Assembly: GCA_003649205.1 (NCBI GenBank)
Contig: QMRC01000010.1
Location: 1 to 60,908 of the forward strand
Length of the DNA: 60,908 nt
Reading direction: 5' to 3'
Origin: Thermoprotei archaeon
GTDB taxonomy: Archaea; Thermoproteota; Thermoprotei; Thermoproteales; B15-G16
Below are positions 7,284 to 34,541 of this stretch, one piece after another. The position numbers and the translations under genes are program-made. Numbering within the stretch: position 1 is the first letter of the stretch; every line of letters begins with the position of its first letter. The notes below the pieces were generated by a model, which saw only the letters and a list, made by a program, of their open reading frames with translations, made no database searches and had not been told where the DNA came from.

Positions 7284-7341
7284 CGCTTTTGTCTGGTATG
7301 TGTTTGAGGTTAAATACTTCCCTCTCTCGTGTTCTTGGTTG

Positions 7342-7392: not shown

Positions 7393-7432
7393 TTTTCTGT
7401 GGTTAAGTTGATTAGGGGTTTCTGCTGTTGCT

Positions 7433-19770: not shown

Positions 19771-21116
19771 AGACCGAGGTCTAGACCTGTCTCAAAATGT
19801 TTGGTAAAGTACTTAGCTAGTAATTTCTCCCTTCTTCTACCCAACTTACTCACCTTCTTGAATATCTCGTATGCTTGGAGTAATTCCTTGACGTCTCTTA
19901 CTGTTGTTCCTGATCCTCTAGCTATTCTCCTCATTCTCGAGGCATTTATTATCTCGGGATTGAGTAGTTCCTCTAAGGTCATTGACTTCAATATAGCGTA
20001 CCACTTCCTTAGCTTTTCCTCACCAATCTTCATCTGCTCCTCACCGAGTGGTAGTAGAGAGAAGCCGGGTATTAGCTCAAGTACTTTGCGTAGTGGTCCC
20101 ATCTTCATTATCGCTTCAAGCTGCTTCATGAAGGTTAGTAGGGTCACCTTCTTCGTCTTACTGATTTCCTCCATTAACTTCATATGCTCTTCAACTGCCT
20201 TCATTCGCTCAATGAGGCCAACTATGTCACCCATGCCTAGTAATCTCGAAACAAATCTTGGTGGATCAAAGACCTCTATGTCCTCAACATCCTCTCCTAA
20301 ACCAACAAACTTGATCTTAGCTCCCGTCTCTACAACTGCCATTAAGGCACCTCCACCTCTTGCTGACCCATCTAGCTTTGCTAGAAATATCGAGTCTATT
20401 GCTGCTGCTTCCTTAAATGCTCTTGCCTGAGCACCTGCTTGCTTACCTATTGAGGCGTCTAGAACTAGCATCACTTCATCCGGTTTTATCTCTCGATATA
20501 TCTCACGTAGCTCAGCTATGAGGTACTCCTCCTTTCTATGTCTACCAGCAGTATCGACTATTATTATATCAACACCCTCTTCCTTGAAGTACTCAATACC
20601 TCTTCTCGCTATATCAACCGAATCCCTGGAACTCTTATCTATGAACACAGGGACACCAACCTTATCACCTAACTGCTTTAACTGATCCATAGCACCTGGC
20701 CTGTAGACGTCAGTACTGATGAGACCTACCCTAAAGCCTCTCCTCTTGTAGAATAGTGCTAGCTTAGCAGCACTCGTGGTCTTACCTGAACCTTCAAGAC
20801 CAACCAACAGTATTACGTATGGTCTCTTGCTAGGTAGTACATTCGGCTTCCTCTCACCACCGAGAACCTTAATTAACTCTTCGTAAATTGCTCTGAGTAG
20901 TAGTTCTCGCTTAGAGAATCCAGGTGGTGGTTCTTCCTCCTTAACTCTCCTCTCTATTGCTCTACACAGCTTCAGCACTAACTCAGCGCTGACATCAGCT
21001 CTCAAGAGGGCTCTCTGTATGTCTCTCAGTACACTCTTAACTAATTCCTCATCTACGTAAGTAGCTGAGAGTATCTTCTTGATTACTGAGGTAAAGCCTT
21101 CAATTAACTGCTTCAT
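19767..21116 (-). CDS. srp54: signal recognition particle protein SRP54
   Basis: GLEGSGKTT, DTAGRH, GMGDI, M-domain RIARGSG. Confidence 0.96.
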   Translation of the reverse strand: MKQLIEGFTSVIKKILSATYVDEELVKSVLRDIQRALLRADVSAELVLKLCRAIERRVKEEEPPPGFSKRELLLRAIYEELIKVLGGERKPNVLPSKRPYVILLVGLEGSGKTTSAAKLALFYKRRGFRVGLISTDVYRPGAMDQLKQLGDKVGVPVFIDKSSRDSVDIARRGIEYFKEEGVDIIIVDTAGRHRKEEYLIAELREIYREIKPDEVMLVLDASIGKQAGAQARAFKEAAAIDSIFLAKLDGSARGGGALMAVVETGAKIKFVGLGEDVEDIEVFDPPRFVSRLLGMGDIVGLIERMKAVEEHMKLMEEISKTKKVTLLTFMKQLEAIMKMGPLRKVLELIPGFSLLPLGEEQMKIGEEKLRKWYAILKSMTLEELLNPEIINASRMRRIARGSGTTVRDVKELLQAYEIFKKVSKLGRRREKLLAKYFTKHFETGLDLGL

Positions 21117-22189
21117 ACGCTCGTAGATATACCAGAGAACTTCCTAATATATTCCTCTAACCTACCCCTAATCACTATGCCAGCTCTAGGTGCTATCTCG
21201 AAAACTAATTTCTGTGGTTGTACATTCATCCACCTCATCTTGCGTATGAACATTACTCTGAGAACTCTACCGTAGATTTCCTCTAGCTTGAGCACAATAA
21301 CGCCAGAGGCTAGATACTCCTCAACACCGAATCTACTCAGTAGGTTACTTCCTGTAGGTATTTCTGATGTAAAGATCGTAGTTACGTTACCAAGTCTCTC
21401 AAGTGCGAAGACTAACTCTCTAACGTACTCTCTAACCCACAGTACGTCACTGTGACCGCTCTGTATTAGTGGTGCTATTGGATCTACAACTAGTCTCTGG
21501 ACATTGTACTTAGTGACGTACTCAACTATTGCATCGGCAACAGCTCTTGGATCAATGTACTGTCTCTCACCTCTAGCATATAGTCTGAAGTGAGTTCTGA
21601 GATCTACGAAGTGTAGTAATCCATCGTCAATTAGTCTATCTACATCCCACTCCAGTGTCCTTAGTCCTCTAATCACGTGTTCAGAAGGTTCGTCGATTGA
21701 TACGTAGAGACCCGACTCACCCATGAGGGCTCCAGTTACTAGGAACTGTAGTGAGAATATTGTCTTTCCCGTACCTGCTTCACCAGATATTAGGTATGTC
21801 TTGCCCCTCCAGAAGCCACCCTGTAGAACCTCATCTAGACCCTGTATACCCGTTGGTGCTTTAAACTCGCTTGTCTGAACTCTAGTCATGTGAGCTTGAG
21901 ATTCCGGGACTGCTTGCTGTACTGGTACTGTATGTACTTGTGGTTGGGGTGTGTACGTGGGTGTGTACTGTACCTCCGTCGTAGTTGGAGGCTGTACTTG
22001 AGGTTGAGTTACTGGGATTGTTCTGTTCTCCCTCACTACCTCTTCGCGTGATAGATGGAGACATGGTGGGTCATCGGGGTTCTCAATGATGATACCACCA
22101 TAGGTTGGATGTAGGCAGAGACCTGAATCCTCATCATAGTATATGCATTTCCTACACGTGTACTTCTTCCTTCGTCTAAAGAGACCCAC
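21113..22189 (-). CDS. KaiC-like RecA-superfamily ATPase with N-terminal Cys cluster and P/Q/T linker
   Basis: TGIQGLD, GEAGTGKT, SIDE, VVDP, GVEEYLASG, IRKMR. Confidence 0.85.
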   Translation of the reverse strand: MGLFRRRKKYTCRKCIYYDEDSGLCLHPTYGGIIIENPDDPPCLHLSREEVVRENRTIPVTQPQVQPPTTTEVQYTPTYTPQPQVHTVPVQQAVPESQAHMTRVQTSEFKAPTGIQGLDEVLQGGFWRGKTYLISGEAGTGKTIFSLQFLVTGALMGESGLYVSIDEPSEHVIRGLRTLEWDVDRLIDDGLLHFVDLRTHFRLYARGERQYIDPRAVADAIVEYVTKYNVQRLVVDPIAPLIQSGHSDVLWVREYVRELVFALERLGNVTTIFTSEIPTGSNLLSRFGVEEYLASGVIVLKLEEIYGRVLRVMFIRKMRWMNVQPQKLVFEIAPRAGIVIRGRLEEYIRKFSGISTSV

Positions 22190-22258: not shown

Positions 22259-23872
22259 CTATCTCGGAACTACACGAATTCTAACACCGTACTTACTACT
22301 TAGCGCTTCAAGTTTCTTTCTGCAACGGGCATTTACGATATCGTAGTGTCTATCCGGTACGTAGATGTTTATTGTTGATTCATCAATTACCTCGATGTCT
22401 ATGTTTTCTGGTGCTACGTACTTGCTAATTATCTTCTTAGCTCTACTTATGACCTTTCTTAGGCCTCTCTCGATCTGAAGTCTCCTAACCGGGACAACGA
22501 AGGTCTGCTCACCAAATACATAGATCTCGTACTCAGGTTCCTCAGTTAAGAAATCCTTAACGACAACAACTGGTCTAGCTAAGTCCTCTTCTCTGAGTCC
22601 TGTAGGTATCTTAACAACTAGCTCTAGTGAGTACACCTTGGTTACTTCGCCGTTCTTCATGAAGATCACGGTATCTATTATGGATGGTATCATACCTAGC
22701 TCAACTCTACCAATGAACCTTTGTATAGCATCGATAGGACTTGTGGCGTGTACCACACCAACCATACCGACTCCAGCAAGCCTTAAGTCCTTAAACAATT
22801 CGAAATCTTTCGTATCTCTCATCTCGTCAAATATCGTGTAGTCAGGTCTTGAAAGTAGTAGTACGTCATGTAGTTCCTCAGATGTCGCGAATGCTTTTGA
22901 GTATTGAGTAATCTCCGGTGGTAGTATCATATCTCTAGGTGCTTCAATTGTCTTCACTATCCTACCTTTCCTTAGGTAGAATTCAGCTAGCGCCTGTGCG
23001 AAGGTTGTCTTACCAGCACCTGGTGGACCTGCTATGAGTATTCCCTCAGCTTGCTTCTCAAGTCTCCTAATTAGCTTCTCAGGTAAGTTATAGTCTTCCA
23101 ACCTCTTCTTAATTATTGGTCTAACAATGGTGACTTCATATCCATCAGCTGTTGGTGGTTTCACTATGATGATCCTATAGTTTCTGTACTGAACGATAGT
23201 TGTGTTCGGTCGCTCAACTTCAATAAATGCATCTCCCCTCTTACTCTCTCTACAGTACTCAAGTATTTCACGAACAATGTTCTCGATATCGTTCCTCGTT
23301 AGTGGTTTCTCACCTACTTGAACTAAGTACCACATTCCTGGTCTACCTTTCTTCGCTGTCGGTGGTACACCCTCTTTGAGGTGAATAGACATTGTTTCGG
23401 AGTCAAATAAGTCCTCAAAGCTTAGCTTCTCCTTAACCCTGCGCTCAACGTATATGCAACGTATTCCAGAGGCCTCACATACCTGTTTCTTAACTTCGTC
23501 ACAGGTAATTACTACTGCATCCCAGTCCCGAGCTAGCTCACGTATTAAACTATCAACATCCTCAAGACTGAACACCCTATACCCACTAGGTACCTCACGA
23601 GTGAACTCAATAGCAACTTCATCTGATAGACCAAACTTAGAGATGAGATCCAGTACTTCACGAAGCTCAGTAATGCCTATGTACCCGAGAGATTTACCCT
23701 CATGAGCAAGCTTCTCGAAGTAGTCCAACAGCTTCGTATGTATTATCACTCTACCCCTGATCTCTCCACGTAGTACAAGCTCCTTAAGCCCGCCTCTAAC
23801 AAGTGCTGTGGAATCAGGTAGGTAAACATCCATACCTACTTCACGTGCAGTACTCATACCCACGTCACTCAC
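22259..23872 (-). CDS. PINA-type ATPase (PIN + VirB11-like ATPase + KH)
   Basis: YLPDST PIN start, SIHLKEG, GPPGAGKTTFAQAL, DEMR, GVVHA, EIYVFGE. Confidence 0.9.
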   Translation of the reverse strand: MSDVGMSTAREVGMDVYLPDSTALVRGGLKELVLRGEIRGRVIIHTKLLDYFEKLAHEGKSLGYIGITELREVLDLISKFGLSDEVAIEFTREVPSGYRVFSLEDVDSLIRELARDWDAVVITCDEVKKQVCEASGIRCIYVERRVKEKLSFEDLFDSETMSIHLKEGVPPTAKKGRPGMWYLVQVGEKPLTRNDIENIVREILEYCRESKRGDAFIEVERPNTTIVQYRNYRIIIVKPPTADGYEVTIVRPIIKKRLEDYNLPEKLIRRLEKQAEGILIAGPPGAGKTTFAQALAEFYLRKGRIVKTIEAPRDMILPPEITQYSKAFATSEELHDVLLLSRPDYTIFDEMRDTKDFELFKDLRLAGVGMVGVVHATSPIDAIQRFIGRVELGMIPSIIDTVIFMKNGEVTKVYSLELVVKIPTGLREEDLARPVVVVKDFLTEEPEYEIYVFGEQTFVVPVRRLQIERGLRKVISRAKKIISKYVAPENIDIEVIDESTINIYVPDRHYDIVNARCRKKLEALSSKYGVRIRVVPR

Positions 23873-24201
23873 ACATGCTACTTACCGTAACACAACAACA
23901 CGTCTCCCTTAAATCTCTACCTAAAAGAAGAGAAGAGAAGTGAGTAGGTGACATAGCGTGACGTATACAGGATAGGTCCTGTACCTACAACACCTCGGTA
24001 TCACGTAGGTAACTCACTGAACTAGTGAGCAATGAGCGAGCAATGTAGTATAATTTCGTTAAGGTATTTCAGTCCATGCGCTTAGGTAGGTGTGTAGGTG
24101 TTGATGGTTACCTGTAGTCCTCTACTAGCTATCCTACATGAGCTTCCTAAACTTAAATAAGTCCTTAGGACATTGTTTAGTTAGGCGAAGGTGTTGAGTA
24201 C

Positions 24202-24621
24202 ATGGATAGTCCTAGAGTTAAATTCAGTGTGATTGGTGTTACTCTAGCATCCGTAGGTATTGCTCTCGTGATATTGTGCTCTCTCTGCTGTATGGGTATT
24301 GCTTTGCTAGCTATGAGAGAGGCTCTCACGATGAAGAAGGTAGGTGTACCGACATTCATAGTCATGGCGTTAGATGCCAAGCTCTTAGCTGTTTTAGGTG
24401 TATTCACGTTGTTTCTCGGTATTGCAGCTCTCACTGCTATGCTAATGCACTATAGGTATCCGAGTGAGACAACGAGCCCAGGTCTAGCAATTCTACTGTG
24501 TTCCTTAGTGGCGTTAGCTCTATTCATGATACCTCTTGCATCGGGTCTCTACGTGTTCATAATTGGTGTCGTTGGGGCTATTCTCAGTGCTGCAGGTGGA
24601 TTAGTTATAATGACTTCGTAG
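24202..24621 (+). CDS. small multi-pass membrane protein (~4 TM)
   Basis: almost entirely hydrophobic; TTAAATA TATA-like box upstream; co-oriented with the JAMM gene. Confidence 0.7.
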   Translation: MDSPRVKFSVIGVTLASVGIALVILCSLCCMGIALLAMREALTMKKVGVPTFIVMALDAKLLAVLGVFTLFLGIAALTAMLMHYRYPSETTSPGLAILLCSLVALALFMIPLASGLYVFIIGVVGAILSAAGGLVIMTS

Positions 24622-24685
24622 CTATCCACTGAAGTCCGTGAAGGTTAGGTATTTAGTACATGGTGAGGTCACTAGGTCTGTATAG

Positions 24686-26473
24686 GTGGATTTCATGAGT
24701 TACGGAAGCTATGCCCTTCCTAAGATCTTGCTATCTAGGGGAGCCTTTAGGAAGGTATGTAAGCACGTGTACTCCGTTTTTGATAAGGAGGTTATTGGTC
24801 TTTTAATTGGTGAGATAGTTTATGAGGATACTCAACCAGTGGTTGTTATTTGGGATGCTATACCGGGTGAGGCGGAAGCTTCTGAAATTCACGTTAGCTT
24901 GAGACCTGAGTTCTTGGCAAAAGTCATGAACGATATCTTAACTGGTAAGATTAGTGGTCGAATCGTTGGTTGGTACCACTCTCATCTCGGTGTTGGTGTC
25001 TTCCTTAGTGAAGTAGATGCGAGGACCCAGTCAATGCTACAGCAATTTTCTCAGAATGTAGTTGCTCTCGTTGTTGATGTTATTCAGAAGAAAGCTGGTT
25101 TCTTCATTCTAAGGAATGGTCAGCCCATTAAAATTCCTAGAGAAAACATTCAGATGATCTCCAATGAGGAGATGACTAAACTTAAGCAGCAGATAGTAAC
25201 TAAGTGCTCGCAGACAATACTTGGGGGGAAGTCCATTCGAGTATCGATTGTACCTAGGAAGAGAATTATCTTCAGGAGGAAAAGGTCTAGTGCTCTATTG
25301 TTCGTAGCAACTATATGCATCGTCACTATAGTACTTCTAGCTACATTACTTGTCATGTATCGAGGTATACATTATCGAGGTGTAAGTAGGGAAGCTGCTA
25401 CATTAAGGGATTTGGTACGTAGTTACAACACTACTCTCTTCAAAATAGCAGAGAGTATAGGATGTGGGGGTAGGGAAGTTGAACTATCATCTCTACTCGC
25501 TCTCATGGTTAAGTACGGTGAGATGAACATCAGTAGTACTCAAGCTAACTTACTTACCTCTACTTGGCCTCTCTCACTTTTCATACTAAATGCGACAGGT
25601 AGTGTCGAAAAAACCTGTACCACCTTACATAGGCTAGATAAGGTCATGAACATTTCCTCGCTAAGTTCTACCCAAAGATACTTACTTCTTCACACACTCT
25701 ACTTACTGAGCGAGAAACTGGATGGTAATCTAAGCAAGGCTGTTGACGTACTTATCAAGCTTTACAGAGCTATCGAGGAATGTGGTGGTGATCTAGCTAC
25801 TACTCACTCGTTAATTGAGTACGTTAGCTCATCTACTCTAGATGCCATATGGGAGGTACGAGATGATGAGAAGTTGGTTAGTAAGGTGTGTCTTCTACTT
25901 AAGCTTCAAGAGGTAAATCCAAAGCTACTGAGTTATGATGTTATTGAGTTGACTCTCTGGTTGAGAAATTTAGAGGGTTTAGGTATTGGGTGGATTACAT
26001 TAGCTAGAATTAACATGTCGAATATTGAGGATTTAGGAGCTTTCCCTCTTAACTTAACGCTTTTTGTAAATGGTTCTTCGAGGGGAAGTGTGGTGATTTC
26101 GCTAGAGAATCTAGTGAATGTACTGGAGCTACTTCATCTGAAGTATGGTGATTTGGTGTCGATGGGAAATAGCTTAGTCATAACATCGTCGAGAGGTGTT
26201 AGGTCTATTAAGCTTCTCGTGAATGAGCCTAAGAGTGCTGTGGTAATCCTCAAGATTGGGACTCACATGATCAAGTTAGGTACTGGTAGGAGTTTTAACA
26301 TATGTATTGTACTCAATCCTCCACTACCTAAGGAACTTATTGAGAAGCTCCTGTTTGGTGAAGGTCTTTTAAAGGTCACTATTAATGGTAGGGAGGTATC
26401 GCTAAGGTTTAGTAGTGAGCAGACTAGTCTTAAGGAAGGAATCCTAGTATACACAGTTCGTAGTGCTCAGTGA
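24686..26473 (+). CDS. Rpn11-like JAMM/MPN+ metalloprotease with central TM helix and large C-terminal domain
   Basis: KEVIGLLIG, IVGWYHSHLGVGVFLSEVD (H-x-H-x7-S-x2-D), ALVVD; basic RKRIIFRRKR followed by a TM helix. Confidence 0.88.
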   Translation: MDFMSYGSYALPKILLSRGAFRKVCKHVYSVFDKEVIGLLIGEIVYEDTQPVVVIWDAIPGEAEASEIHVSLRPEFLAKVMNDILTGKISGRIVGWYHSHLGVGVFLSEVDARTQSMLQQFSQNVVALVVDVIQKKAGFFILRNGQPIKIPRENIQMISNEEMTKLKQQIVTKCSQTILGGKSIRVSIVPRKRIIFRRKRSSALLFVATICIVTIVLLATLLVMYRGIHYRGVSREAATLRDLVRSYNTTLFKIAESIGCGGREVELSSLLALMVKYGEMNISSTQANLLTSTWPLSLFILNATGSVEKTCTTLHRLDKVMNISSLSSTQRYLLLHTLYLLSEKLDGNLSKAVDVLIKLYRAIEECGGDLATTHSLIEYVSSSTLDAIWEVRDDEKLVSKVCLLLKLQEVNPKLLSYDVIELTLWLRNLEGLGIGWITLARINMSNIEDLGAFPLNLTLFVNGSSRGSVVISLENLVNVLELLHLKYGDLVSMGNSLVITSSRGVRSIKLLVNEPKSAVVILKIGTHMIKLGTGRSFNICIVLNPPLPKELIEKLLFGEGLLKVTINGREVSLRFSSEQTSLKEGILVYTVRSAQ

Positions 26474-26546
26474 TGTAAGTCAGGGAAAGTTAAATAAACT
26501 ACCTTCGTAAGTTCCAATTGTCAGCACGTGTTACTTGGGTGTGAAA

Positions 26547-27005
26547 ATGGTTAAAATTTGTCCAAAGTGTGGTAAGGAAAATCCGGACGAAGCATCATAT
26601 TGCTTGCACTGTGGTGCACAGTTAGGTGCTGCACCATCAGCACCTGTAGCGAAGCCACCACCTACTGTTACCGTGACGAAGCCACCTGTAACTGCTAAGC
26701 CAGTACCTACAGCACCGGCAGTCACAGCACCTAGACTACCAACAGTAACATCAACTATAATAAGACCACCAGGGATGTGCTTCTACCATCCACAGATACC
26801 TGCTAAGTACATCTGTAGCAGATGTGGAAGACCAATCTGCGAAAACTGCGCAACGGAAATTGGAGGACTGATCCTATGTCCTCAGTGCGCAGCAGGTATA
26901 GCACCTATTAGAGGAAGAAGCTATTGGTGGATAGCGGTAATTGTTGGTGTTGCTATTGCCGCAGCCATAGCCTTCGTAATACTGTTCTTCCCAACAGTAC
27001 CCTAA
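26547..27005 (+). CDS. zinc ribbon + Pro/Thr linker + B-box-like Zn finger + C-terminal TM anchor
   Basis: CPKCG..CLHCG; CFYH..CSRC..ICENC..LCPQC; C-terminal WWIAVIVGVAIAAAIAFVILFF. Confidence 0.8.
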   Translation: MVKICPKCGKENPDEASYCLHCGAQLGAAPSAPVAKPPPTVTVTKPPVTAKPVPTAPAVTAPRLPTVTSTIIRPPGMCFYHPQIPAKYICSRCGRPICENCATEIGGLILCPQCAAGIAPIRGRSYWWIAVIVGVAIAAAIAFVILFFPTVP

Positions 27006-27020
27006 GCTTGTCGGAGAAAG

Positions 27021-28274
27021 TTAATCTCCCTTTTCTTCCCTACTCTCCAGTCTATGCACTAAAGAGCTCATCTCTAGCAGACTCATTGTGAACTTCTCAA
27101 GTGTGTTCAATAGCTCTTCTGCCTTTTTACATACTTCAATGACTATCCTACGTACTTCTTCATTTAGGTCGGTGGTAATGTTGAGAGAGTCTTCAATGCA
27201 CGTTCTCAATTTATTGATTAGGGCTGTAGTCTCTGTTCTACACCTCTCTGCACTTAGCACCGTAATCTCTAGCGAAGTAGTTTCCTCCTTAAGTTGCTTA
27301 AGATATTTCTCAAGCTCTTCCCTCCTAGCTAGTAATGTAGCTAGCTCGTTCTGGAGCTCAGGTCTCTCTTCAATCAGTATTCTAGCACGTAACAGCTCAA
27401 TCTCATCATCTAATCTCCTAATCTCCTCCTCAATGCTCTCAATCTTCGCCTTAACATTGCTAGGTATCGGTACGCTACCTACCTCACCAGGTACAAGGTC
27501 TATCTTCAACTTCGTTAAAGGAATTGACAAACCTAGCTTAGTTAATGCATCTGCTACTAAGGTATTCAACTTAGAAATATCGCTTAATATCTCTCTCTTC
27601 TTGGCTACATACTCCTCGACCTCCACATCACCTATCTCAAGCTTGGTCTCTAAGACCTCTAGGTCTTCCACCTTACCTTTCAGAAGTTCTTCGAATTGCT
27701 TAGCTACTTCCACTAGCAACATCGTAGCTAGTGAACAACATGTTGTGAGACTACTTAACTTAGCCAAGTACTCACTACTTAATCTCTTATAAGCTGTTTC
27801 GCTAACTCTACCTTCTTTCCTGAAGTTACTCAATTTCTTTAGCTTTGTGACTAGTGAATGTAGGTCGATGAAGATAGAGCTTATGTAGTTCTCAATTGTT
27901 TTGCTCAGTACGTTGAGTAGTGTTGTTTGATGTAGTTTCTTCACTAGATCAATTAGTCTTCTCTTCTTTCCTTCGTACTCATTAGTGCTAATTTCTCCCA
28001 GTAGCTGCTTTGCGGTTAACTCAGCATACTTACTGAGTACTATGTCCTCAAGTTCTCTAGACTTGGTAGTGGGTAGTCTATCTATGTCTATGAGGTCTTC
28101 TAGGTACAGATCAATTAATGCGGCTAATACATTGTAGGTGGATGCTATTCCTAGTTCCCGACTTAAAGTGCCTAGTTCTAGGTGGAGTGTGGTATTTCCT
28201 GTTTCTCGATATTTCTTGAGTAGTACATCTATGAGCTTCTGCTTTAGCTCCTTATCCTGTACATTACTTGTCAT
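27021..28274 (-). CDS. coiled-coil protein with N-terminal wH-like segment and CdvA/SHOCT-like motifs
   Basis: GEISTNEY, GRVSETAYKRL, LEIGDVEVEEY; long heptad helices; third gene of the Ubl-E2/E1 operon. Confidence 0.6.
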   Translation of the reverse strand: MTSNVQDKELKQKLIDVLLKKYRETGNTTLHLELGTLSRELGIASTYNVLAALIDLYLEDLIDIDRLPTTKSRELEDIVLSKYAELTAKQLLGEISTNEYEGKKRRLIDLVKKLHQTTLLNVLSKTIENYISSIFIDLHSLVTKLKKLSNFRKEGRVSETAYKRLSSEYLAKLSSLTTCCSLATMLLVEVAKQFEELLKGKVEDLEVLETKLEIGDVEVEEYVAKKREILSDISKLNTLVADALTKLGLSIPLTKLKIDLVPGEVGSVPIPSNVKAKIESIEEEIRRLDDEIELLRARILIEERPELQNELATLLARREELEKYLKQLKEETTSLEITVLSAERCRTETTALINKLRTCIEDSLNITTDLNEEVRRIVIEVCKKAEELLNTLEKFTMSLLEMSSLVHRLESREEKGD

Positions 28275-28296
28275 TGTTCTTTCTTCTCCGTAGGAG

Positions 28297-29562
28297 TTAC
28301 TTAATTCTAATCAAGACCTCACGTATGTTGTCTCTGACTTCGTCACGAAATAGTACCTGTAATATCGTACCTTGGGTGTTTGGTATCTCTTTACCTAAGT
28401 CTATGGGTACTACCCCTTCACTAGTTAGCTCATGTATGTACAATCTCTCCCTATCAATTTTGGTACTCAATCTATCTTCAATCATTCGTACTAGTGTGTC
28501 TATGTCTGTGACTTTATTTGGCTCAATATCGATTACCGGTACTTTCTCTTTAACGATACCTTCGTAACCACATACAACACATCTCGTATTTCTTGCTATG
28601 TTTAGCACTGTGTAGCGATTGTTATCTAGGTCAATTAGCAGTACACCTCTAAGTGGTTTGCCTGCATCCTTAGGCCATGTACCTTTTTCCCTGTACTCTC
28701 TGTAGCCGAGAACTAGCTTAATGACCTCTTGTGCCTCTATGGCAGCTACTACGGAGGTTGTAGTCGGTAGTGATGGCATCTTCACCTCCTCTATTGGTGG
28801 TGCACATGGATTACTTAGTTGAATAGCTTCACTGTACTTCTCGGGTGCTATAGTACATGCGAGACATGGTGTTTCAAATGGTAGGACGACCTGTACTCTA
28901 CCCTGGGGACCGTACATACCTCCATCAACTAGTGGTATGTCATATTTTAGTGAGATCGTTGAGAGGTATACTCTAGCTGCTACATTGTCTAGACCTGACA
29001 CAACTACGTCGTGCTCAAGTAGTTTCCTCAGTGGTATCTTCTCTACGAAGTCACATATGTAGTTGAAGTTCGTCCAAGGGAATAGTTTCTTTGCTCTCTC
29101 TGCTAGGGCCTTGGCCTTTAATGCACCTAGATCTGTCTTCTTGAAGAAAATCATTCTGTTTAGGTTTGAGTACTCGACAGTGTCGAAGTCAACTATGGTT
29201 ATGGAGCCAATACCTAGCTGAGCTAAGTTCTTAACTAGTTCATTCCCTAGAGCACCTGCACCTACGATGAGTACCTTTGCTCTTCTTAACTTCTTCTGAT
29301 TTTCAGTACCCCACAGGATTAGTTGCCTTGCCCAGAGGTAATCAACTACTATCCTAACGCTATCTCTAATGTTCTTCTGTTCAAGTACTTCGCGCAAGGT
29401 CTTGTCCTCAGGTAGTAGCTCACCCTCGAGGAGAAGCTTCGTCAATTCAGGTTCAATACCTAAGTCTCTACATATTCTCTTCTTCAGTGTCTTGATCTTT
29501 ATTCCTGGATTTACTTTGATTTGGCTTTTCGTGACGTTAGGTATCTCGACAATGATCCTCAT
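28297..29562 (-). CDS. ubiquitin-like domain fused to E1 (ThiF/MoeB/UBA) activating enzyme
   Basis: N-terminal IKTLKKRICRDLGIEPELTKLLLEGELLPEDKTL (ubiquitin-like); ARQLILWG, VGAGALG, DFDTVEYSNLNR, GLDNVAAR, CLAC..NPC..CVVC. Confidence 0.9.
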   Translation of the reverse strand: MRIIVEIPNVTKSQIKVNPGIKIKTLKKRICRDLGIEPELTKLLLEGELLPEDKTLREVLEQKNIRDSVRIVVDYLWARQLILWGTENQKKLRRAKVLIVGAGALGNELVKNLAQLGIGSITIVDFDTVEYSNLNRMIFFKKTDLGALKAKALAERAKKLFPWTNFNYICDFVEKIPLRKLLEHDVVVSGLDNVAARVYLSTISLKYDIPLVDGGMYGPQGRVQVVLPFETPCLACTIAPEKYSEAIQLSNPCAPPIEEVKMPSLPTTTSVVAAIEAQEVIKLVLGYREYREKGTWPKDAGKPLRGVLLIDLDNNRYTVLNIARNTRCVVCGYEGIVKEKVPVIDIEPNKVTDIDTLVRMIEDRLSTKIDRERLYIHELTSEGVVPIDLGKEIPNTQGTILQVLFRDEVRDNIREVLIRIK

Positions 29563-29567
29563 GATCT

Positions 29568-30434
29568 CTATTGTTGCTGTGTCTTCTTATCCCATCTCAA
29601 GACCCTAACTCTAATACCTAGATCTTCAGGTCTCTCCATTACTTCCAGCTCTATTATGTCCTTTATCTCTTCCTCCTTAACTACCTTCCTCTTCCTTGGG
29701 AATCCATACTTGAGGCATATCTCTGCTGCTCTCCTGCATCTTGGGTGATCGAAGATGTCTAGTGGGTTAGGGTCAGCTAGTAGGTGGTACAGTGCATTTA
29801 TCACGGTTGTTAATCTGAAGTATGGTCTCCAACCATCACCCAGTATTGAATGGCATACACCGCCTGGTACGTTTGGAACTATATTTGGGTGATCTATCTC
29901 TGTTAACCATGTAACTACTGGTGGTGCGAAGGGGTACTCTGGTTCCTGTGGGTACTTCTTCCTGAGGTGTGGGTACTTCTTGTATGTTTCCTTGGTTGGT
30001 AACTCTATTAGGAATTTGTGCCACTGTACGTACTGTGTGAATGGCCATACTCCTCTATTAGCTAGCTCAACTATGTCCTTGTCCTCACATCTAATCAATC
30101 CCTCATACATTGTTGGTGGGTAGTTCAGTGCTTTAACTAGTGGAAATTGTCTCCTAACTAGCTCATACTCCTCAAGTAATCTCGCTACGTCAATACCACC
30201 TATGAGGTATGTTGGCATGAGTGCTAGTCTAGCGTATTCTGGTATTGCTAATTGAGCTACAGTTAATCCTTCATTTAGTATTGTTCCTCCGTAGACGAGT
30301 ACTACGGTATTTGGGTCTATACCCAGTTGCTGACAGACTACTGCTTTGATCTCACCTATTGTATGTTCTGGAAGGACATCGACTTCAACCAGACCAGAAG
30401 CTTCACCTATTGGGATCTCTATAAATAGCTTCAT
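29568..30434 (-). CDS. ubiquitin-like domain (ending LIGG) fused to UBC/E2 conjugating enzyme
   Basis: 80-aa Ubl (TIGEIKAVVCQQLGIDP..LVYGGTILNEGLTV..LIGG), then RLLEEY..YPFAPP..HPNI..GGVCHSIL..WRP..LLADPN; ATG 30434. Confidence 0.92.
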   Translation of the reverse strand: MKLFIEIPIGEASGLVEVDVLPEHTIGEIKAVVCQQLGIDPNTVVLVYGGTILNEGLTVAQLAIPEYARLALMPTYLIGGIDVARLLEEYELVRRQFPLVKALNYPPTMYEGLIRCEDKDIVELANRGVWPFTQYVQWHKFLIELPTKETYKKYPHLRKKYPQEPEYPFAPPVVTWLTEIDHPNIVPNVPGGVCHSILGDGWRPYFRLTTVINALYHLLADPNPLDIFDHPRCRRAAEICLKYGFPRKRKVVKEEEIKDIIELEVMERPEDLGIRVRVLRWDKKTQQQ

Positions 30435-30483
30435 ACCACACACCTATGGTGAAGCAGCTTCCCACTACTCTCTGTACTAAGGT

Positions 30484-30494
30484 CTATATAAATT
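30484..30494 (-). promoter_or_regulatory. putative TATA box of the Ubl-E2 / Ubl-E1 / coiled-coil operon
   Basis: TTTATATA on the minus strand about 50 nt upstream of ATG 30434. Confidence 0.45.
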
Positions 30495-30950
30495 CTATGC
30501 TAGCTTCGTTATCTGCTCTATTCTCACCTAATCGCCACTACGATTGCTTTAGATCCCCTTCTCACAGTAAGGTTATTGTTCCTGAGGCAACTAAGTAGTG
30601 TGCATCTGAGTTCATCTTGTGTTTAATCTCTCTTCGATATGGGAATGGGAATGAGGTATAGATGCTGTGATTGCTAGCCCCTTGTCAAAAACTCTGCTTA
30701 TTTATGAGTTATTGAACGGAATAGGGGGCTGTCTTTGTGAATTTATCTGCTATTACTTGAGGTTCTAGGATGTTGTTAGAGTTCACCACTTATCTCAATA
30801 CCTGAAGGAAATACCTCACCCTCTAATTCACTACTTCATGAAATCTGACTAATTCTAAACTTGATACGCCAAGCTATAGTGACATCTCTCACCTACAGAG
30901 TAAACTCATTGTAGGGGAAGAAGGATATAGCTTTAGATTAAGTTTCATGT

Positions 30951-31438
30951 TTAAGTTTCTTTTCTACTTCTTAACTTTGCTCCACACTTTCTACACTTCT
31001 TCATTAGTGGTGAATTTGGTGTTCCCCACTCACTATATACTACGGCACCTGGCTCACCAGCTTTCTCTCTCATTTTCTCAAGCTGCGTAGTTAATTTTCC
31101 TTTTTCCTTATCTATAGTATTCAATTAACTTCCTGTAGGTTTCCTCAGATATTTCTCCTTGTTTGAACTTCTCTTCTGCTCTTGAAATGTACCTATTGTA
31201 TTGAATTCCTCAATTTTCTCACTCAGCTCATCGTACTCGGCTATAGCTCTATCTAGTTCTGGTGCTAAATCTGCATCACTTCACTCCTCAGGACCAATAT
31301 ACTCATCTACAGTGATCCCTATCCTCAATCTCTTACTCTGAAGATCCAACTGAGTCTCTAAGGTACTGAAACCAATACCAGAACAATTAGCAATATCGCT
31401 AGTACGATTAAGTACCTATCACGTAAGTACGTCCTCAT
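30951..31438 (-). pseudogene. decayed gene: signal/TM segment, coiled coil, GEISEETY motif, zinc ribbon
   Basis: fragments across frames: MRTYLRDRYLIVLAILLIVLVLVSVP*, DADLAPELDRAIAEYDELSEKIEEF, RYISRAEEKFKQGEISEETYRKLIEYY, VVYSEWGTPNSPLMKKCRKCGAKL. Confidence 0.65.
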
Positions 31439-31489
31439 GAGGTGTCTCTCCAAGGTACTATACATGATTTTGTTGAGTTATCTAGTGCA

Positions 31490-31822
31490 CTAGATCTTTG
31501 CTCTTAATTTTCCCAATCTAATCAACTTCCTAATTATTTCCTTCAGTTGCTCCTCTGTTATACCGAATTCGTAAGCTGTTCTCGATATGGAGATTCTACC
31601 TCTATGCGCAACTATGTACCTGTAGATCTTCAGCTCTAAGTCACTTAACTCCTCCTCAACTTGAGGCTTAGGTATCTCACTCCCTTCAACTCTTGAAAGT
31701 AACTTACTGAGTAGCCTAATCACAATACCTTTCTCTCTACCCCCTGCGTATGTGCTCAAGAGCTTAGGTCTTAGATGAATCACTACGAAATCTCCTTCAC
31801 TCACTACATCTGTACTCATCAT
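31490..31822 (-). CDS. small protein with C-terminal winged-helix domain
   Basis: LSDLELKIYRYIVAHRGRISISRTAYEFGITEEQLKEIIRKLIRLGKL. Confidence 0.7.
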   Translation of the reverse strand: MMSTDVVSEGDFVVIHLRPKLLSTYAGGREKGIVIRLLSKLLSRVEGSEIPKPQVEEELSDLELKIYRYIVAHRGRISISRTAYEFGITEEQLKEIIRKLIRLGKLRAKI

Positions 31823-31867
31823 AGCTCTCTAACTTGGTTGTAACATACGTCTTTAATAGTTGTTCTT

Positions 31868-32920
31868 TTGTTCAATTTCTCGATGTACCTACTAGTTACG
31901 GTGCCTGGTGTTGAGGATGTTGTTGTTAAGGAGTTGAGAGAGTGTTTTGGTTGTGATGCCGTTGCTAAGCCTTTTGGTACCTTTGGTAGGGTTTTGTTGA
32001 GTTCTTACGTTCCTCTCTATAGTCTTCGCTGTCTTCGTTCTATTGAGAGGATTGTTAGGTTACTTACCTATCACGTTTTCGACTACACTCCTAAGTTGAG
32101 CGATGTTATGCGTGTTGTAGAGTGTGTTGATTTTTCGAAGTATATTACTCCTTACGTTACTTTTGCTGTTCGTGTTTTGAGGGAGGGTTCACATGACTTT
32201 ACGTCTGTTGATGTTGCGAGAGAGGTTGGTAGAGTTATTCAGGAGCAGATTCGTAGGTGTAGAGGTGTTTCTCCTGTTGTTAGTCTTGAGGGTCCTGATG
32301 TTGAGGTTGAGGTGCAGATTATCAATAGGGTTGTGTTTGTTGGGTTAGATATCACTGGTCCTAAGGCTCTGCACTCGAGACCGTATAGGGTGTACTTTCA
32401 TCCAGCAGCACTCAATCCAATACTGGCCTACTCCATGATTGTGATAGCTGGTGTCGATAGGGGTAGTCGCGTTCTCGATCCCTTCTGTGGTAGTGCAACT
32501 ATCCTCATTGAAGGTGCATTAGCTCGTAGATGCATGTGTATTGGTTCAGACATATCGTTAAGGCACATAAGGGGGGCTATCATGAATGTTGAGAAAGCCG
32601 GTGTGCTCGAGTTAATTGACTTCCTTCACTCAGATATTGCGTACCTGGGTGATAAGTTGAGGAGTGAGGTATTTGACTTTGTGATAACGAACCCACCGTA
32701 TGGTATTCGTGAGGTACCTGAGACTAAGTTACCCGACTTATACGGTGAGTTATTTAGGCTCTGTAAGCACGTACTTAGAAGGGGTGGAGTCCTGTGTCTG
32801 ATCTCTCCTAGGAGGAGACTAGTACACGTGATGGTTGAGAGGTTTAGAGCTGAGTTGGTTCATGAGCGAGAGGTTTTACAAGGTGGTATGCGCTCTAGCA
32901 TCTACGTAATTAAGTTCTAA
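31868..32920 (+). CDS. THUMP-domain tRNA guanine N2-methyltransferase (Trm14-like)
   Basis: TVPGVED, TFAVRV, HPAALNP, DPFCGSATI, TNPPYG. Confidence 0.85.
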   Translation: MFNFSMYLLVTVPGVEDVVVKELRECFGCDAVAKPFGTFGRVLLSSYVPLYSLRCLRSIERIVRLLTYHVFDYTPKLSDVMRVVECVDFSKYITPYVTFAVRVLREGSHDFTSVDVAREVGRVIQEQIRRCRGVSPVVSLEGPDVEVEVQIINRVVFVGLDITGPKALHSRPYRVYFHPAALNPILAYSMIVIAGVDRGSRVLDPFCGSATILIEGALARRCMCIGSDISLRHIRGAIMNVEKAGVLELIDFLHSDIAYLGDKLRSEVFDFVITNPPYGIREVPETKLPDLYGELFRLCKHVLRRGGVLCLISPRRRLVHVMVERFRAELVHEREVLQGGMRSSIYVIKF

Positions 32921-32956
32921 AGTGCTGTACGTAATCAATCTCAATCCTGGAGGGTG

Positions 32957-33005
32957 GTGATGAGATTTGCACGAACTGACGGGTGAAGAACCTCCACTGG
33001 GCTGA
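32957..33005 (+). ncRNA. box C/D methylation guide sRNA (double guide)
   Basis: C GTGATGA 32957-32963, 12-nt guide, D' CTGA 32976-32979, C' GTGAAGA 32983-32989, 12-nt guide, D CTGA 33002-33005; lies between convergent genes. Confidence 0.88.
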
Positions 33006-33010
33006 TATCT

Positions 33011-34012
33011 CTACTCCTTCTCCCAGAGCTTATAGATTTCATCGCGAATGTACTCATTCACTTCCTCCACTACACCAGTAACTCGATGAACCTTGACTCC
33101 ACAACCTTCTCTAGCAACACCTATTACCGTAGCACCCACACCTACTTCCTTCAATGCTGTAAGTGCTCTATCGAGGTTTTCTGGTGGTACAGCAGCTAGG
33201 AGAACACCGGAGCTAATTAGCTTTAGAGGATCTAAACCCAGTACCTGACATACCACCCTCGTTTCCTCTCGAATGGGTACTCTCTCTTCCCATACCTCGA
33301 TGAGTACTCTAGATGAGTACGCCATCTCAGCTAAACCACATAGGATACCACCTTCGGTAGGATCATGCATTGAATGTACTCCTACCTTAGCTAGCGTGAG
33401 TGCCTCCTTAACGACGCTGATTTCCCTAATGAATTGCCTTGCCCTCTCAATCACTACCTTCGACACTCCTCTACTTAGCAGTGTTTCCTCGAAGTCTGTA
33501 GCTAGAATTGATGTACCTTCAAGAGCTACTGCTTTTGTCATGATTATATAGTCACCAGGCTTAACACCGCTAGTCGTTACGTACCTATCTCTAGGAGCTA
33601 ACCCGATAGCGCTCATCACCACAATTGGTCTAGCGAGATGTGGTGTGTACTCACTATGACCTCCAACGACCATAGCACCCACCTCCTTAGCAGCAGCATC
33701 TATCTGCCTGGTTATCTTGTCCAGTAACTCCTCCGGCGCGTTCTCAGGTAGAAGGATCGTACTCAGTAACCAACGTGGTTTTGCACCACATACTGCAACA
33801 TCGTTACAGGCTATGTGCACAGCTAACCAACCAATATTCTCCTCAGCTGCTGTTATTGGATCTACGTGAACTACCAGCACTACATTATCTCCTAGATCTA
33901 TGATTGCTGAGTCCTCACCGTACGTAGGTCCTACAATAACTGCTGGATCAGCTGCTCCTATTCTCGAAAATACATACTTACGTAGGAGATTTGGTGGTAT
34001 CTTTCCTGACAT
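33011..34012 (-). CDS. AIR synthase-related (HypE/PurM-like) protein
   Basis: GEDSA, VDPIT, NDVAVCGA, VGGHSE, MHDPTEGG, DPLKLISSG. Confidence 0.85.
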   Translation of the reverse strand: MSGKIPPNLLRKYVFSRIGAADPAVIVGPTYGEDSAIIDLGDNVVLVVHVDPITAAEENIGWLAVHIACNDVAVCGAKPRWLLSTILLPENAPEELLDKITRQIDAAAKEVGAMVVGGHSEYTPHLARPIVVMSAIGLAPRDRYVTTSGVKPGDYIIMTKAVALEGTSILATDFEETLLSRGVSKVVIERARQFIREISVVKEALTLAKVGVHSMHDPTEGGILCGLAEMAYSSRVLIEVWEERVPIREETRVVCQVLGLDPLKLISSGVLLAAVPPENLDRALTALKEVGVGATVIGVAREGCGVKVHRVTGVVEEVNEYIRDEIYKLWEKE

Positions 34013-34541
34013 AACGACATCCTCTAATACCGAACCTACTTAATTGCTTTAGCAGTACGTACTCCAGCTCAAGTAGTCGTCTATACTTACTCTCATCCCG
34101 TCTTCTCAATGCATCTAGTACTTGAGTCTCTAACTCTTGAAGCTTTCTCAGGTACTCAATGACTACATCTGAGCAACTTGGTGAGATCTCTATCACTAGT
34201 ACCTCGTAACCTCTCGGTGATCTAGCTACCGTACACACATAGAGGGGGTATCCTAGGAAGCTAGCTTTCGTAGCTACATCACCTAAGTCAACCGTTGATG
34301 GCGTCCACTTGCTAAGTGGATGCGTGTGAACGTAACCGATGAACCTCATGTAGGGATTACTTGTATCTACGGGAAAGACTCCACCATAGGTTGATAACAC
34401 AAGTGGTTCAGTAACTACGACCTCACCACTTGAATTCAGGTAGAGAGGTGTAACTACTTCACTACCTGTTTCACTCTGTAGCTCAAGTAATTTAGGTGCT
34501 AAGGTTATAGCTATCTTCACCACCTTACTGAATAAATCCAC
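33978..34541 (-). CDS. soluble JAB/JAMM-domain protein
   Basis: GSEV upstream Glu, FIGYVHTHPLSKWTPSTVDL (H-x-H-x7-S-x2-D). Confidence 0.7.
   Translation of the reverse strand: MDLFSKVVKIAITLAPKLLELQSETGSEVVTPLYLNSSGEVVVTEPLVLSTYGGVFPVDTSNPYMRFIGYVHTHPLSKWTPSTVDLGDVATKASFLGYPLYVCTVARSPRGYEVLVIEISPSCSDVVIEYLRKLQELETQVLDALRRRDESKYRRLLELEYVLLKQLSRFGIRGCRYVRKDTTKSPT

Follow-up and report, generated by a model that had tools for sequence, protein, structure and literature searches.

This study asks whether an island of approximately 8 kb in the genome of Thermoprotei archaeon encodes a ubiquitin conjugation system and, if so, how such a system relates to those already known from Archaea, Bacteria, and eukaryotes. 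The island lies at 24.2–31.8 kb of a 60,908 bp stretch of DNA (contig QMRC01000010.1 of assembly GCA_003649205.1; hereafter the window), which belongs to a metagenome-assembled genome (MAG) of 2.07 Mb with 93.8% completeness and 4.2% contamination. Archaeal ubiquitin systems offer the main view of the origin of the eukaryotic ubiquitin network, and so far only the soluble, RING-dependent operon of Caldiarchaeum subterraneum has been reconstituted. All eight gene elements that the original prediction, made from the sequence alone, had placed in the island are present according to the listing of open reading frames (ORFs) and Pfam (Table 1). They include a ubiquitin-like (Ubl) domain with a terminal diglycine (GG) fused to a ubiquitin-conjugating enzyme (E2), a ubiquitin-activating enzyme (E1) with its own N-terminal Ubl domain, a JAMM protease, and a zinc-ribbon/B-box protein; the transmembrane (TM) segments proposed for the latter two were borne out by a hydropathy scan. 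Domain content, active-site motifs, topology indicators, single-copy components, cluster conservation, co-occurrence, selection, and the insertion site together make it probable that the island is a functional, horizontally acquired Ubl conjugation system of a distinct subtype, defined by a Ubl-E1, a B-box protein, and a membrane JAMM protease.

The Ubl domain of the fused E2 gene matches Pfam ubiquitin (PF00240; E = 2.2e-7), and a profile of 14 free ubiquitins (Ub) from related gene clusters covers it over positions 1–80 (E = 8.3e-33), which is the only match of that profile in the genome. The N-terminus of the protein aligns with a whole polyubiquitin repeat, with its ...LIGG opposite ...LRGG and the residue after it opposite the Met of the subsequent repeat, and the Ubl joins the first E2 residue without a linker. 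The Ubl is 97.5% identical in an independent MAG of the same genus (G001) and, with a ratio of nonsynonymous to synonymous substitution rates (dN/dS, computed throughout between two species of the genus) of 0.03, it is the most constrained part of the island. The E2 part (dN/dS 0.05) is the only UQ_con match in the genome (E = 1.1e-13); its HPN motif (HPN185) and Cys197 are invariant across the aligned relatives, and its relatives in the PDB include UBE2E1 and UBE2D. An 18-residue loop insert occurs, among the E2 relatives aligned, only in the two genomes of the genus; it contains a duplicated KKYP motif, which corresponds to an exact 14-nt repeat with a spacing of 21 nt at 29947–29981. Two short motifs (acidic-[IV]-[VIL]-[RH]-F-[NK]-[IV]) are conserved in the tails of the family's E2s; we take them to resemble SUMO-interaction motifs, and they may dock on a Ubl. 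Upstream of the gene, the two species share approximately 65 nt of conserved DNA before the ATG, with 5 mismatches among the last 67 columns of the alignment; this stretch includes a promoter-like TTTATATA box approximately 50 nt before the start codon, whereas the DNA further upstream is poorly alignable.

Elsewhere in the genome no candidate modifier was detected: PF00240 had two matches, which are the N-termini of the island E2 and E1, and ThiS/MoaD (PF02597) had none. Within what profile searches of the genome detect, the proposal that the only GG-terminated modifier is encoded as a pro-domain on the E2 was thus confirmed. Since no other ubiquitin or ThiS protein, no RING protein, and no second E1 were found in the genome, the E2-borne Ubl must be released to act as a modifier. 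Linear fusions that are cut after GG are familiar from eukaryotic polyubiquitin and ubiquitin–ribosomal protein precursors; we know of no described eukaryotic case of a ubiquitin fused to its cognate E2, although no search aimed at one was made. How the fusion arose could be read from the Ub–E2 junctions of 54 metagenome loci that gave one alignment (in the remaining 26 of 80, Ub and E2 were separate matches or the locus was cut). In 47 loci a stop codon lies at ...GG or 1–3 residues beyond, with the E2 following in-frame within a few codons, and the fused junction of the window is collinear with this Ub stop and E2 start; the other seven (L047, L048, L049, L050, L076, L078, and L094) have no stop. 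The loss of one stop suffices to create a Ub–E2 fusion, and the fusion is a derived minority state. Of 105 E2 homologs found, 99 are stand-alone proteins of approximately 172–212 aa and 6 combine ubiquitin with UQ_con. On the E1 tree, calculated by a quick method and with long branches, the fused loci require at least two origins, with a group of AG junctions on the one side and L048 and the window genus on the other. The junction is GG in the window, the sister genome, L048, and P0004, and the terminal Gly of the Ubl is invariant in the fused forms. Some free ubiquitins of the family extend 1–3 residues past GG, so that C-terminal trimming already exists in the family. The Rpn11-like protease of Caldiarchaeum (CsRpn11) is described as cutting its 87-aa pro-Ub precisely after GG and also a linear Ub-GFP fusion (PMC5654768, PMC6043591). 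By analogy, cleavage of the Ubl-E2 by the JAMM protease is the simplest reading and the most likely route of release. The last K/R before the Ubl C-terminus would leave an 11-residue tryptic remnant, as read from the sequence, instead of diGly, which makes diGly proteomics unsuited for this system.

The E1 comprises a Ubl (residues 1–75; Pfam ubiquitin, E = 3.8e-7), a ThiF/UBA-type adenylation domain (77–332; Pfam ThiF, E = 1.6e-55), and a C-terminal domain (336–421). The genome has no further ThiF-family match above cut-off, and the dN/dS of the E1 is 0.12. Its best relatives of solved structure are the active adenylation domains of human and yeast UBA1 (1.7e-34), followed by MoeB (3.4e-20). 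No NCBIfam model reached its cut-off, the model of the SAMP-activating E1 scoring 97.1 bits against a required 450. C233, C236, C253, C328, C331, and the GxGxxG motif are invariant across 47 E1 sequences; four of these cysteines form two CxxC pairs. Cys253 sits after the first CxxC, and we assume from what is known of MoeB/Uba-type E1s that it is the catalytic cysteine of the crossover loop. A profile of the E1 Ubl is similar to that of the cluster ubiquitins (hhalign probability 97.3%, E = 1.8e-11), and both share a conserved Cys in the first helix. The E1 Ubl ends in ...VDY without a Gly and runs directly into the adenylation domain. Family-wide it is a fixed domain and a Ub paralog, not a second modifier. 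As to whether the C-terminal domain of the E1 is a further ubiquitin fold, hhalign gave no evidence in either direction (probability of 0.3% with Ub and of 4.1% with the N-terminal domain of the E1). The genome of the window (G000, with the completeness given above) yielded no ThiS/MoaD gene and no ThiF-family E1 above cut-off besides the Ubl-E1; if this is real, the organism lacks the usual SAMP/MoaD–MoeB pair.

The protease consists of a JAMM domain (approximately residues 4–200; Pfam JAB, residues 13–124, E = 3.8e-13) with an intact metal motif (HSHx7SxxD, consensus HxHx7SxxD), a TM segment (205–223), and approximately 370 further residues. Its best solved relative is the Rpn11-like protein of Caldiarchaeum (6fjv; 5.6e-18), followed by Rpn11 (2.7e-15), CSN5, and BRCC36; PF01398 has no other match in this genome. 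Seven K/R residues just before the TM segment as opposed to three just after it, and eight N-x-S/T sequons in residues 226–595 as opposed to none in residues 1–200, indicate that the JAMM domain is probably cytoplasmic and the C-terminal domain extracellular. The JAMM domain (dN/dS 0.14) is more constrained than the ectodomain (0.26), and the JAMM-TM-ectodomain architecture is common to the cluster relatives. The ectodomain showed no sequence similarity to the immunoglobulin (Ig)-like ectodomains of the canonical cluster described below, and a search of the ESM Atlas gave no usable feature match, with all structure rows at a TM-score below 0.31 by query. At a distance of 2 kb from the island, a 187-aa ORF (33978–34541, minus strand) that overlaps the end of an AIR-synthase-related gene also contains a complete HxHx7SxxD motif; its Prok-JAB match (E = 0.0034) is below cut-off and it was missed by the PF01398 search of the genome, and it may be a second, minimal JAMM protease.

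A further component of the island is the zinc-ribbon/B-box protein. It matches Zn_Ribbon_1 (E = 2e-9) and zf-B_box (PF00643; E = 2.5e-6, 28 bits against a cut-off of 24.1). The B-box has eight conserved ligands (in sequence, C, H, C, C, C, C/D, C, C), as in a binuclear site, and a G-x-C-x-Y-H...C...C...C pattern is invariant in the family. Of 54 family members, 49 match zf-B_box and 7 Prok-RING_1, while the Zn ribbon gave sub-threshold matches to RanBP-type fingers in 8 and to UBZ in 2. The island protein is the sole match of the genome to the B-box family profile. The original observation that no RING protein is visible holds genome-wide, as zf-RING_2 had no match at E <=0.1 and none of the eight island proteins matched it in Pfam. 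The tripartite RING–B-box–coiled-coil architecture was not found either: according to Pfam the B-box polypeptide carries neither a RING nor a coiled coil. B-box-profile matches with E <=1e-25 were present in 42 of 42 genomes that contain a Ubl-E1 and in 2 of 209 that do not (tables compared by eye); these two genomes are 83–88% complete and stem from families that otherwise carry the system, and weaker matches elsewhere map to the TM part of the profile. This co-occurrence points to a tight functional link, which is not the same as catalysis. In the RING-type operons of two related loci (L042 and L044) a 75–80-aa zf-RING_2 gene follows the E1, and the same slot of the canonical cluster holds a soluble zinc-ribbon/B-box gene. 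Because of the co-occurrence with the Ubl-E1 and the occupation of the slot of the RING gene, the B-box protein is the best candidate for a ubiquitin ligase (E3) or adaptor.

The cluster family to which the island belongs was defined from 86 related loci, 6 from genomes and 80 from metagenomes. In the canonical gene order, a zinc-ribbon/B-box protein with four TM segments (4TM), the JAMM-TM-ectodomain protease, Ub, E2, Ubl-E1, and a soluble zinc-ribbon/B-box protein follow each other, with a gene for an ectodomain-TM-zinc-ribbon-winged-helix (wH) protein on the opposite strand. The canonical Ub is a free gene that ends in GG and lies just before the E2; the opposite-strand protein (545–703 aa) is composed, according to Pfam, of a signal peptide, Ig-like repeats, a TM segment, a Zn ribbon, and a wH domain at the C-terminus. 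Counted on loci with enough flanking sequence, the zinc-ribbon/B-box gene directly after the E1 was found in 38 of 44, the upstream JAMM in 38 of 41, the upstream B-box gene in 30 of 32, and the wH protein in 28 of 29 eligible loci; the E1 carries the N-terminal Ubl in 73 of 75 loci. The architecture of the island is not unique: the island is a rearranged, horizontally acquired member of a large conserved family represented by the 80 metagenome loci and by 42 of 251 genomes of another class of the Thermoproteota, in which the Ubl-E1 occurs once per genome. Within that class the Ubl-E1 is near-universal in some families (f52, 12/13; f50, 4/4; f31, 3/3; f74, 3/3; f76, 2/2) and was not found in others (f71, 0/59; f23, 0/33; f14, 0/14). 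At the phylum level, 66 of 401 genomes have a relative of the E2; apart from that of the window itself only six are close (E <1e-40). In public databases the proteins are named "ThiF family adenylyltransferase", "ubiquitin-conjugating enzyme E2", or "hypothetical protein", and several of the E2s are assigned to Bathyarchaeia. We find the family-level picture more interesting than the single locus.

The window shares with this family the Ubl-E1, the zinc-ribbon/B-box protein, and the JAMM-TM-ectodomain protease, but lacks the large protein with Ig repeats, TM segment, Zn ribbon, and wH domain, of which it keeps only a soluble wH domain of 110 aa. Whereas the canonical cluster has a free Ub and both 4TM and soluble copies of the B-box protein, the window has the Ub fused to the E2 and one B-box protein with a single TM segment; it also has an extra small TM protein and an extra wH/coiled-coil protein. 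The closest locus, L048, likewise encodes a 157-aa B-box protein with one TM segment, a 91-aa wH protein, a JAMM-TM protein, and a fused Ubl-E2 with GG. Its cluster lies beside a gene for a predicted surface protein of 1462 aa (324–4712, minus strand) and one for a membrane protein of 240 aa, and a 156-aa zinc-ribbon/coiled-coil gene is located between its E1 and JAMM genes, where the window has none. In a quick LG+G4 search with SH-aLRT support only, from which L038 and partial E1s were left out, the Ubl-E1 sequences formed a clade of their own against five E1s of RING-type operons (SH-aLRT 100). The window genus and L048 appeared as long branches in a basal polytomy of this tree, for which reason neither a donor lineage nor a clade of the window with L048 is claimed. 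As a separate observation on the canonical B-box protein, its 4TM domain (profile positions approximately 93–236), which gave weak DUF6114 matches in 5 of 54 members, also forms the end of ORFs of approximately 725–827 aa and occurs as stand-alone ORFs of 125–200 aa in genomes of the cluster-bearing class (G584:C1, G564:C242, G599:C24, G623:C3, and others).

The description of the island as an insertion in housekeeping DNA holds. It is flanked by the genes of the Holliday-junction ATPase PINA and of Trm14, with SRP54, Pus10, a KaiC-like ATPase, and AlaRS in the vicinity. In one of five order-level relatives examined around PINA (G007), Trm14 adjoins PINA in divergent orientation at a distance of approximately 50 bp; this is the arrangement expected on removal of the island and thus represents the empty site (the neighbors of PINA differ in the remaining four). 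Of 41 close relatives and of 120 genomes of the class, 2 each were found to have the E2; all of these positives belong to the genus of the window. Judged from this distribution and the empty site, the island was horizontally acquired by one genus. No direct or inverted repeats beyond chance-size matches flank it, and no tRNA gene lies at its borders (tRNA genes are located at 6.4 and 14.6 kb). Among viral contigs, none of six pattern matches to the E2 was confirmed, and plasmids and phage records yielded no relative. The island genes are under purifying selection: in addition to the values given above, the dS of the island (0.26–0.55) is close to that of the flanking genes PINA, KaiC-like ATPase, and SRP54 (dS 0.24–0.43; dN/dS 0.02–0.07).

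From these data the following cycle can be proposed. The Ubl-E2 would be a pro-protein, which the cytoplasmic JAMM domain would cut after GG to yield a free ubiquitin of 80 residues and an active E2. The Ubl-E1 would adenylate the freed C-terminus, take it over as a thioester (candidate Cys253), and pass it to Cys197 of the E2. The membrane-tethered zinc-ribbon/B-box protein would fill the role that the small RING protein has in archaeal operons of the RING type. By recruiting the E2~Ub to the cytoplasmic side of the membrane it would direct conjugation toward membrane-proximal proteins, and the same JAMM protease would reverse the modification. The protease ectodomain may couple this cycle to extracellular events, as may the ectodomain of the large wH protein in the canonical cluster, and the two winged-helix proteins of the island are probably regulators. 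A bolder proposal, which we regard as rather unlikely in this full form, is that the family is a conserved archaeal transmembrane ubiquitin-signaling module with B-box ligases and with a protease and a wH factor that bear extracellular sensors, through which surface events would be translated into (de)ubiquitylation and gene regulation.

Several points weigh against the proposed conjugation system. Its support comes from sequence comparisons, and TM4 (the small membrane protein of the island), the coiled-coil protein, the protease ectodomain, and the C-terminal domain of the E1 have no assigned role or fold. The E2 is regarded as divergent because its UQ_con match is confined to profile positions 53–119 of 140. 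The junction is AG instead of GG in 6 of the 7 fused metagenome loci, and cleavage of these fusions is less certain, as there is also no spacer beyond the Ub tail. The genomes compared are related and thus not independent, so that the co-occurrence counts overstate the support. B-box domains are unproven as E3s in prokaryotes. A secondary source ties those of prokaryotes to membrane proteins, namely to their folding, stability, and proteolysis, and not to ubiquitin (PMC4506424, with reference to Burroughs et al., 2011), so that the protein may instead act as substrate, anchor, or Ub receptor. Finally, contigs of the independent Logan assembly overlap by just 11 nt within the decayed region of the island (31261–31271).

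Four alternatives have to be weighed against this proposal. The cascade may be real without the B-box protein being a ligase: the E2 would transfer the modifier directly, in the manner of Ubc9 or the bacterial Bil E2, and the B-box, JAMM, and wH proteins would be substrates, receptors, or scaffolds. The weak sub-threshold RanBP-type (8/54) and UBZ (2/54) matches of the Zn ribbon hint at Ub binding, each of the canonical cluster's three membrane proteins has a Zn ribbon or JAMM domain on its cytoplasmic side, and the reported tie of prokaryotic B-boxes to membrane-protein proteolysis (PMC4506424, a secondary citation) would fit as well. We nevertheless consider this alternative somewhat unlikely, given that the B-box gene fills the slot after the E1 that the RING gene holds in RING-type operons, that the eight-ligand cross-brace pattern is strictly conserved, and that most clusters contain a soluble, TM-less paralog, which is more in keeping with a cofactor of an enzyme than with a membrane substrate. 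According to another alternative, the Ubl of the E2 is never cleaved and serves as a permanent regulatory domain like that of the E1, either beside an undetected modifier or after conjugation has been lost. The fixed and uncleavable Ubl paralog on the E1 provides a precedent within the cluster, and the AG junction of 6/7 fused metagenome loci, the missing linker past the Ub tail, and the decay of a neighboring gene can be read in the same sense. The E1 Ubl has, however, lost the two features that the E2 Ubl retains, namely the full Ub tail and the invariant terminal Gly; moreover, the E2 Ubl is the island's most constrained part, all catalytic residues are retained in E1, E2, and JAMM, and searches of the genome revealed neither a further ubiquitin nor a ThiS/MoaD-family gene. 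A permanently attached Ubl thus appears very improbable.

The other two alternatives concern the nature of the island as a whole. It could be an antiviral or other conflict system akin to Bil/Bub or CBASS type II, which would attach the Ubl to invader proteins or to an effector after surface sensing. Its parts (Ubl, E1, E2, JAB) match those reported for bacterial Bil operons (10.1101/2023.09.26.559546, PMC11601596), and the E1 adenylation domain matches 33 PADLOC "E1-E2" models (best 6.4e-17), but these matches cover the generic adenylation fold only; in the same scan of eight island proteins the E2 had no PADLOC match and the JAB reached just 0.029, while the E1 is nearest to UBA1 and the JAMM to CsRpn11/Rpn11. 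Horizontal acquisition by one genus and the faster evolution of the ectodomain (0.26) and TM4 (0.31) relative to the cytoplasmic enzymes would suit a defense function. The ectodomain shows no sign of positive selection, however, the genes flanking the island are housekeeping genes, and no relatives were found in viral contigs, phage records, and plasmids. In the donor-like class the cluster is also single-copy, syntenic, and near-universal within some taxonomic families and was not found in others, as expected for vertical inheritance and not for a patchy island. The distribution leans against a typical defense island, and we regard a defense role as improbable. That the island is an assembly artefact, with foreign contig pieces merged into a Thermoproteales bin, might be suspected from the MAG contamination of 4.2%, from the break of the independent Logan assembly at 31261–31271, and from the GC content, which is slightly lower in the island (0.40–0.44) than in the flanks (0.44–0.47). 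The second MAG of the genus, G001, has the same PINA-TM4-JAMM junction on contig C21 and, on another contig (L003), a block from a small TM ORF through the E2 into the E1. Logan contigs of the probable source run cover 23200–31271 (continuing 8.3 kb upstream) and 31261–33000 with 0 differences and span the two outer junctions with equal coverage (depths of 21.1 and 20.9), and the dS of the island genes resembles that of the flanks. The integrity of the contig is thus corroborated for the left junction and the E2–E1 block by G001 and for both outer junctions by the Logan contigs, although at 31261–31271 continuity depends on the 11-nt overlap; an artefact is extremely unlikely.

The features of the island are compiled in Table 1.

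Table 1. Genes and other features of the ubiquitin-like conjugation island (positions in the window; aa, amino acids).
Feature	Position	Strand	Basis or remark
Small polytopic membrane protein (TM4), 139 aa	24202–24621	+	ORF listing, hydropathy scan
JAMM/MPN+ protease-TM-ectodomain, 595 aa	24686–26473	+	Pfam JAB; likely start 24695 = residue 4
Zn-ribbon/B-box protein with C-terminal TM, 156 aa	26535–27005	+	Pfam; likely start Met5 = 26547
wH-like/coiled-coil protein, 417 aa	27021–28274	-	Last gene of the E2–E1 transcription unit
Ubl-E1, 421 aa	28297–29562	-	Pfam ubiquitin and ThiF
Ubl(GG)-E2 fused ORF, 291 aa	29568–30443	-	Pfam ubiquitin and UQ_con; likely start ATG 30434
E2 (UBC) part of the fused ORF	29568–30194	-	Pfam UQ_con, HPN, Cys197
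Ubiquitin module, 80 aa, ends ...LIGG	30195–30434	-	Profile of free cluster Ub, polyubiquitin alignment
Conserved upstream region of the Ubl-E2 gene, promoter-like	30435–30510	-	Two-species alignment
ORF fragments only	30446–31490	-	In-frame TGA and TAA, frame change
Decayed gene remnant within the ORF-fragment stretch	30951–31477	-	35-aa TM mini-ORF, coiled-coil and half-Zn-ribbon fragments
Winged-helix protein, 110 aa	31490–31822	-	Alignment to C-termini of large cluster proteins

Of the accessory genes, the first had been predicted to encode a protein with four TM segments; the hydropathy scan found three clear segments and a Gly-rich fourth. TM4 has no Pfam, NCBIfam, or PADLOC match and is known only from the genus of the window, as neither tblastn nor blastp detected a relative in the 86 related loci; it is 82% identical in G001 (dN/dS 0.31). 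The idea that TM4 split off from the 4TM part of the canonical B-box protein is unsupported (hhalign probability 9.7%). The coiled-coil protein gave only sub-threshold matches to coiled-coil Pfam families, and the only relative found is 28% identical and encoded beside the L048 cluster. As a lead only, its first approximately 65 residues resemble a LexA-type wH domain in an ESM Atlas model (TM-score 0.53–0.75 by row); the Atlas gave no usable feature match for this protein. The wH protein aligns, also by tblastn, to the C-termini of the 545–703-aa ectodomain-TM-Zn-ribbon-wH proteins of the cluster, and HTH_24 was matched by 12 of 37 wH tails of this family. An assignment to PCI, which would give an MPN+PCI pair as in the proteasome lid, was considered on the basis of 22.5 bits against a cut-off of 22 and dismissed, since among the 37 tails it was matched by that of the window only. 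Related strains differ in the N-terminal part of the wH gene or in its neighbor. Contigs of the runs X2 and X3 match the window up to 31685, inside the wH ORF, and then share the same unrelated sequence.

The region between the E2 and wH genes, for which a pseudogene had been proposed, indeed consists of ORF fragments (Table 1) and is a decaying gene: related strains have indels in it (+1 at 30825 and -5 at 31194), and in the sister genome it is approximately 500 nt shorter. Stop codon recoding was rejected as an explanation, as two different stops and a frame change are involved. Outside the island, the KaiC-like ATPase (21113–22189, minus strand) has a Cys-rich N-terminal segment and a linker rich in Pro, Thr, and Gln, and is kept beside PINA in 4 of the 5 order relatives examined; KaiC-like genes also lie 3–4 kb from the cluster in the metagenome loci L110, L115, and L117, probably by chance. 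The stretches 1–3000 and 7000–9000 of the window show an unusually strong strand skew (AT about -0.5, GC 0.25–0.43) and include ORFs of the metallo-beta-lactamase fold and of diphthamide synthesis.

Comparison with known systems identifies the locus as a little-studied cousin of the eukaryotic ubiquitin system. Among the components by which eukaryote-like ubiquitylation is recognized, the sequence points to a GG modifier, an E1, an E2, and an Rpn11-like JAMM, and a RING E3 was not found. The operon of Caldiarchaeum subterraneum, which comprises Ub, E1, E2, a small RING E3, and an Rpn11-like JAMM and has been reconstituted in vitro, shares with the window a GG modifier, a UBA1-like E1, an E2 with HPN and Cys, the Rpn11-like JAMM, and the operonic arrangement of the genes; its modifier, too, needs C-terminal processing, which is described as being performed by CsRpn11 (PMC5654768, PMC6043591). 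The RING-type operons L042 and L044 encode a soluble JAB of 202–266 aa, a free pro-Ub of 87 aa, and an E1 without an N-terminal Ubl, in one case with a C-terminal ubiquitin-like domain, whereas in the window a B-box protein takes the place of the RING protein, the JAMM is membrane-anchored and has an ectodomain, the E1 bears a Ubl, and the Ub is fused to the E2. The original proposal of a distinct variant of the eukaryote-like Ub/E1/E2/JAMM system was therefore correct with respect to the RING-type operon, although the architecture is not unique.

The system is also less novel for Crenarchaeota than had been suggested, since crenarchaeal Ub labels and RING-less Ub/E1/E2/JAMM operons are already in print. 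"JAMM-3" denotes prokaryotic JAMMs nearer to Rpn11 that are encoded in operons with Ub, E1, and E2 and without an E3 (Fuchs et al., 2018, PMC6043591). These resemble the window in being RING-less operons outside Caldiarchaeum and Asgard archaea and, compared by description only, may be the same family; the passages on this group mention no membrane anchoring, B-box partner, Ubl-E1, or Ubl-E2 fusion (PMC6043591). "Ub labels" were reported from eight YNPFFA crenarchaeal single-cell genomes (Grau-Bove et al., 2015, PMC4327156); this concerns the presence of Ub domains only, and the corresponding passages describe no cluster, fusion, or membrane components. A preprint lists ubiquitin-system eukaryotic signature proteins (ESPs) in Bathyarchaeota MAGs without detail. 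Searches of the open-access and bioRxiv literature, some of which were poorly targeted, returned no archaeal Ub operon that is described as having a JAMM anchored in the membrane, a B-box partner, or a Ubl fused to the E1 or to the E2. Bacterial Bil/Bub systems and CBASS Cap2/Cap3 contain the same four enzyme and modifier classes and share the E1 adenylation fold. The window differs from Bil/CBASS in having neither an E1–E2 fusion nor a CD-NTase and in the lack of a significant PADLOC match for E2 and JAB; its enzymes are nearer to eukaryotic and Caldiarchaeum proteins, and its distribution is lineage-conserved. With SAMP/Urm1-type conjugation it has in common a beta-grasp modifier, a ThiF-family E1, and removal by a JAMM, but it possesses an E2, its modifier belongs to the ubiquitin and not the ThiS/MoaD family, and the genome has no PF02597 match. 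The B-box resembles that of eukaryotic TRIM/B-box proteins in its binuclear Zn pattern, in a polypeptide that lacks both the RING and the coiled coil.

The subtype offers new angles on archaeal ubiquitin biology, namely a B-box protein as ligase candidate, a deubiquitinase with a link to the membrane and the extracellular space, and ubiquitin folds on both E1 and E2. Even if none of the functional proposals holds, the locus is a clear, annotatable case among proteins whose public names are generic. Whole families of a widespread class of sediment archaea retain the cluster, and the hyperthermophilic genus of the window could supply biochemical work with five or six proteins, a compact set that is probably thermostable. 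Should the idea of a transmembrane signaling module prove true, the family would be a prokaryotic precursor both of B-box/TRIM-type ligases and of membrane-bound transcription factors under the control of ubiquitin, and the fused E2 would be an inactive pro-enzyme whose activation frees its own substrate ubiquitin at a fixed ratio of 1:1. If the JAMM protease processes the Ubl-E2, this would be a new coupling of modifier supply to enzyme activation, and if the B-box protein proves to be a ligase, the link between B-box and ubiquitin would predate the eukaryotes.

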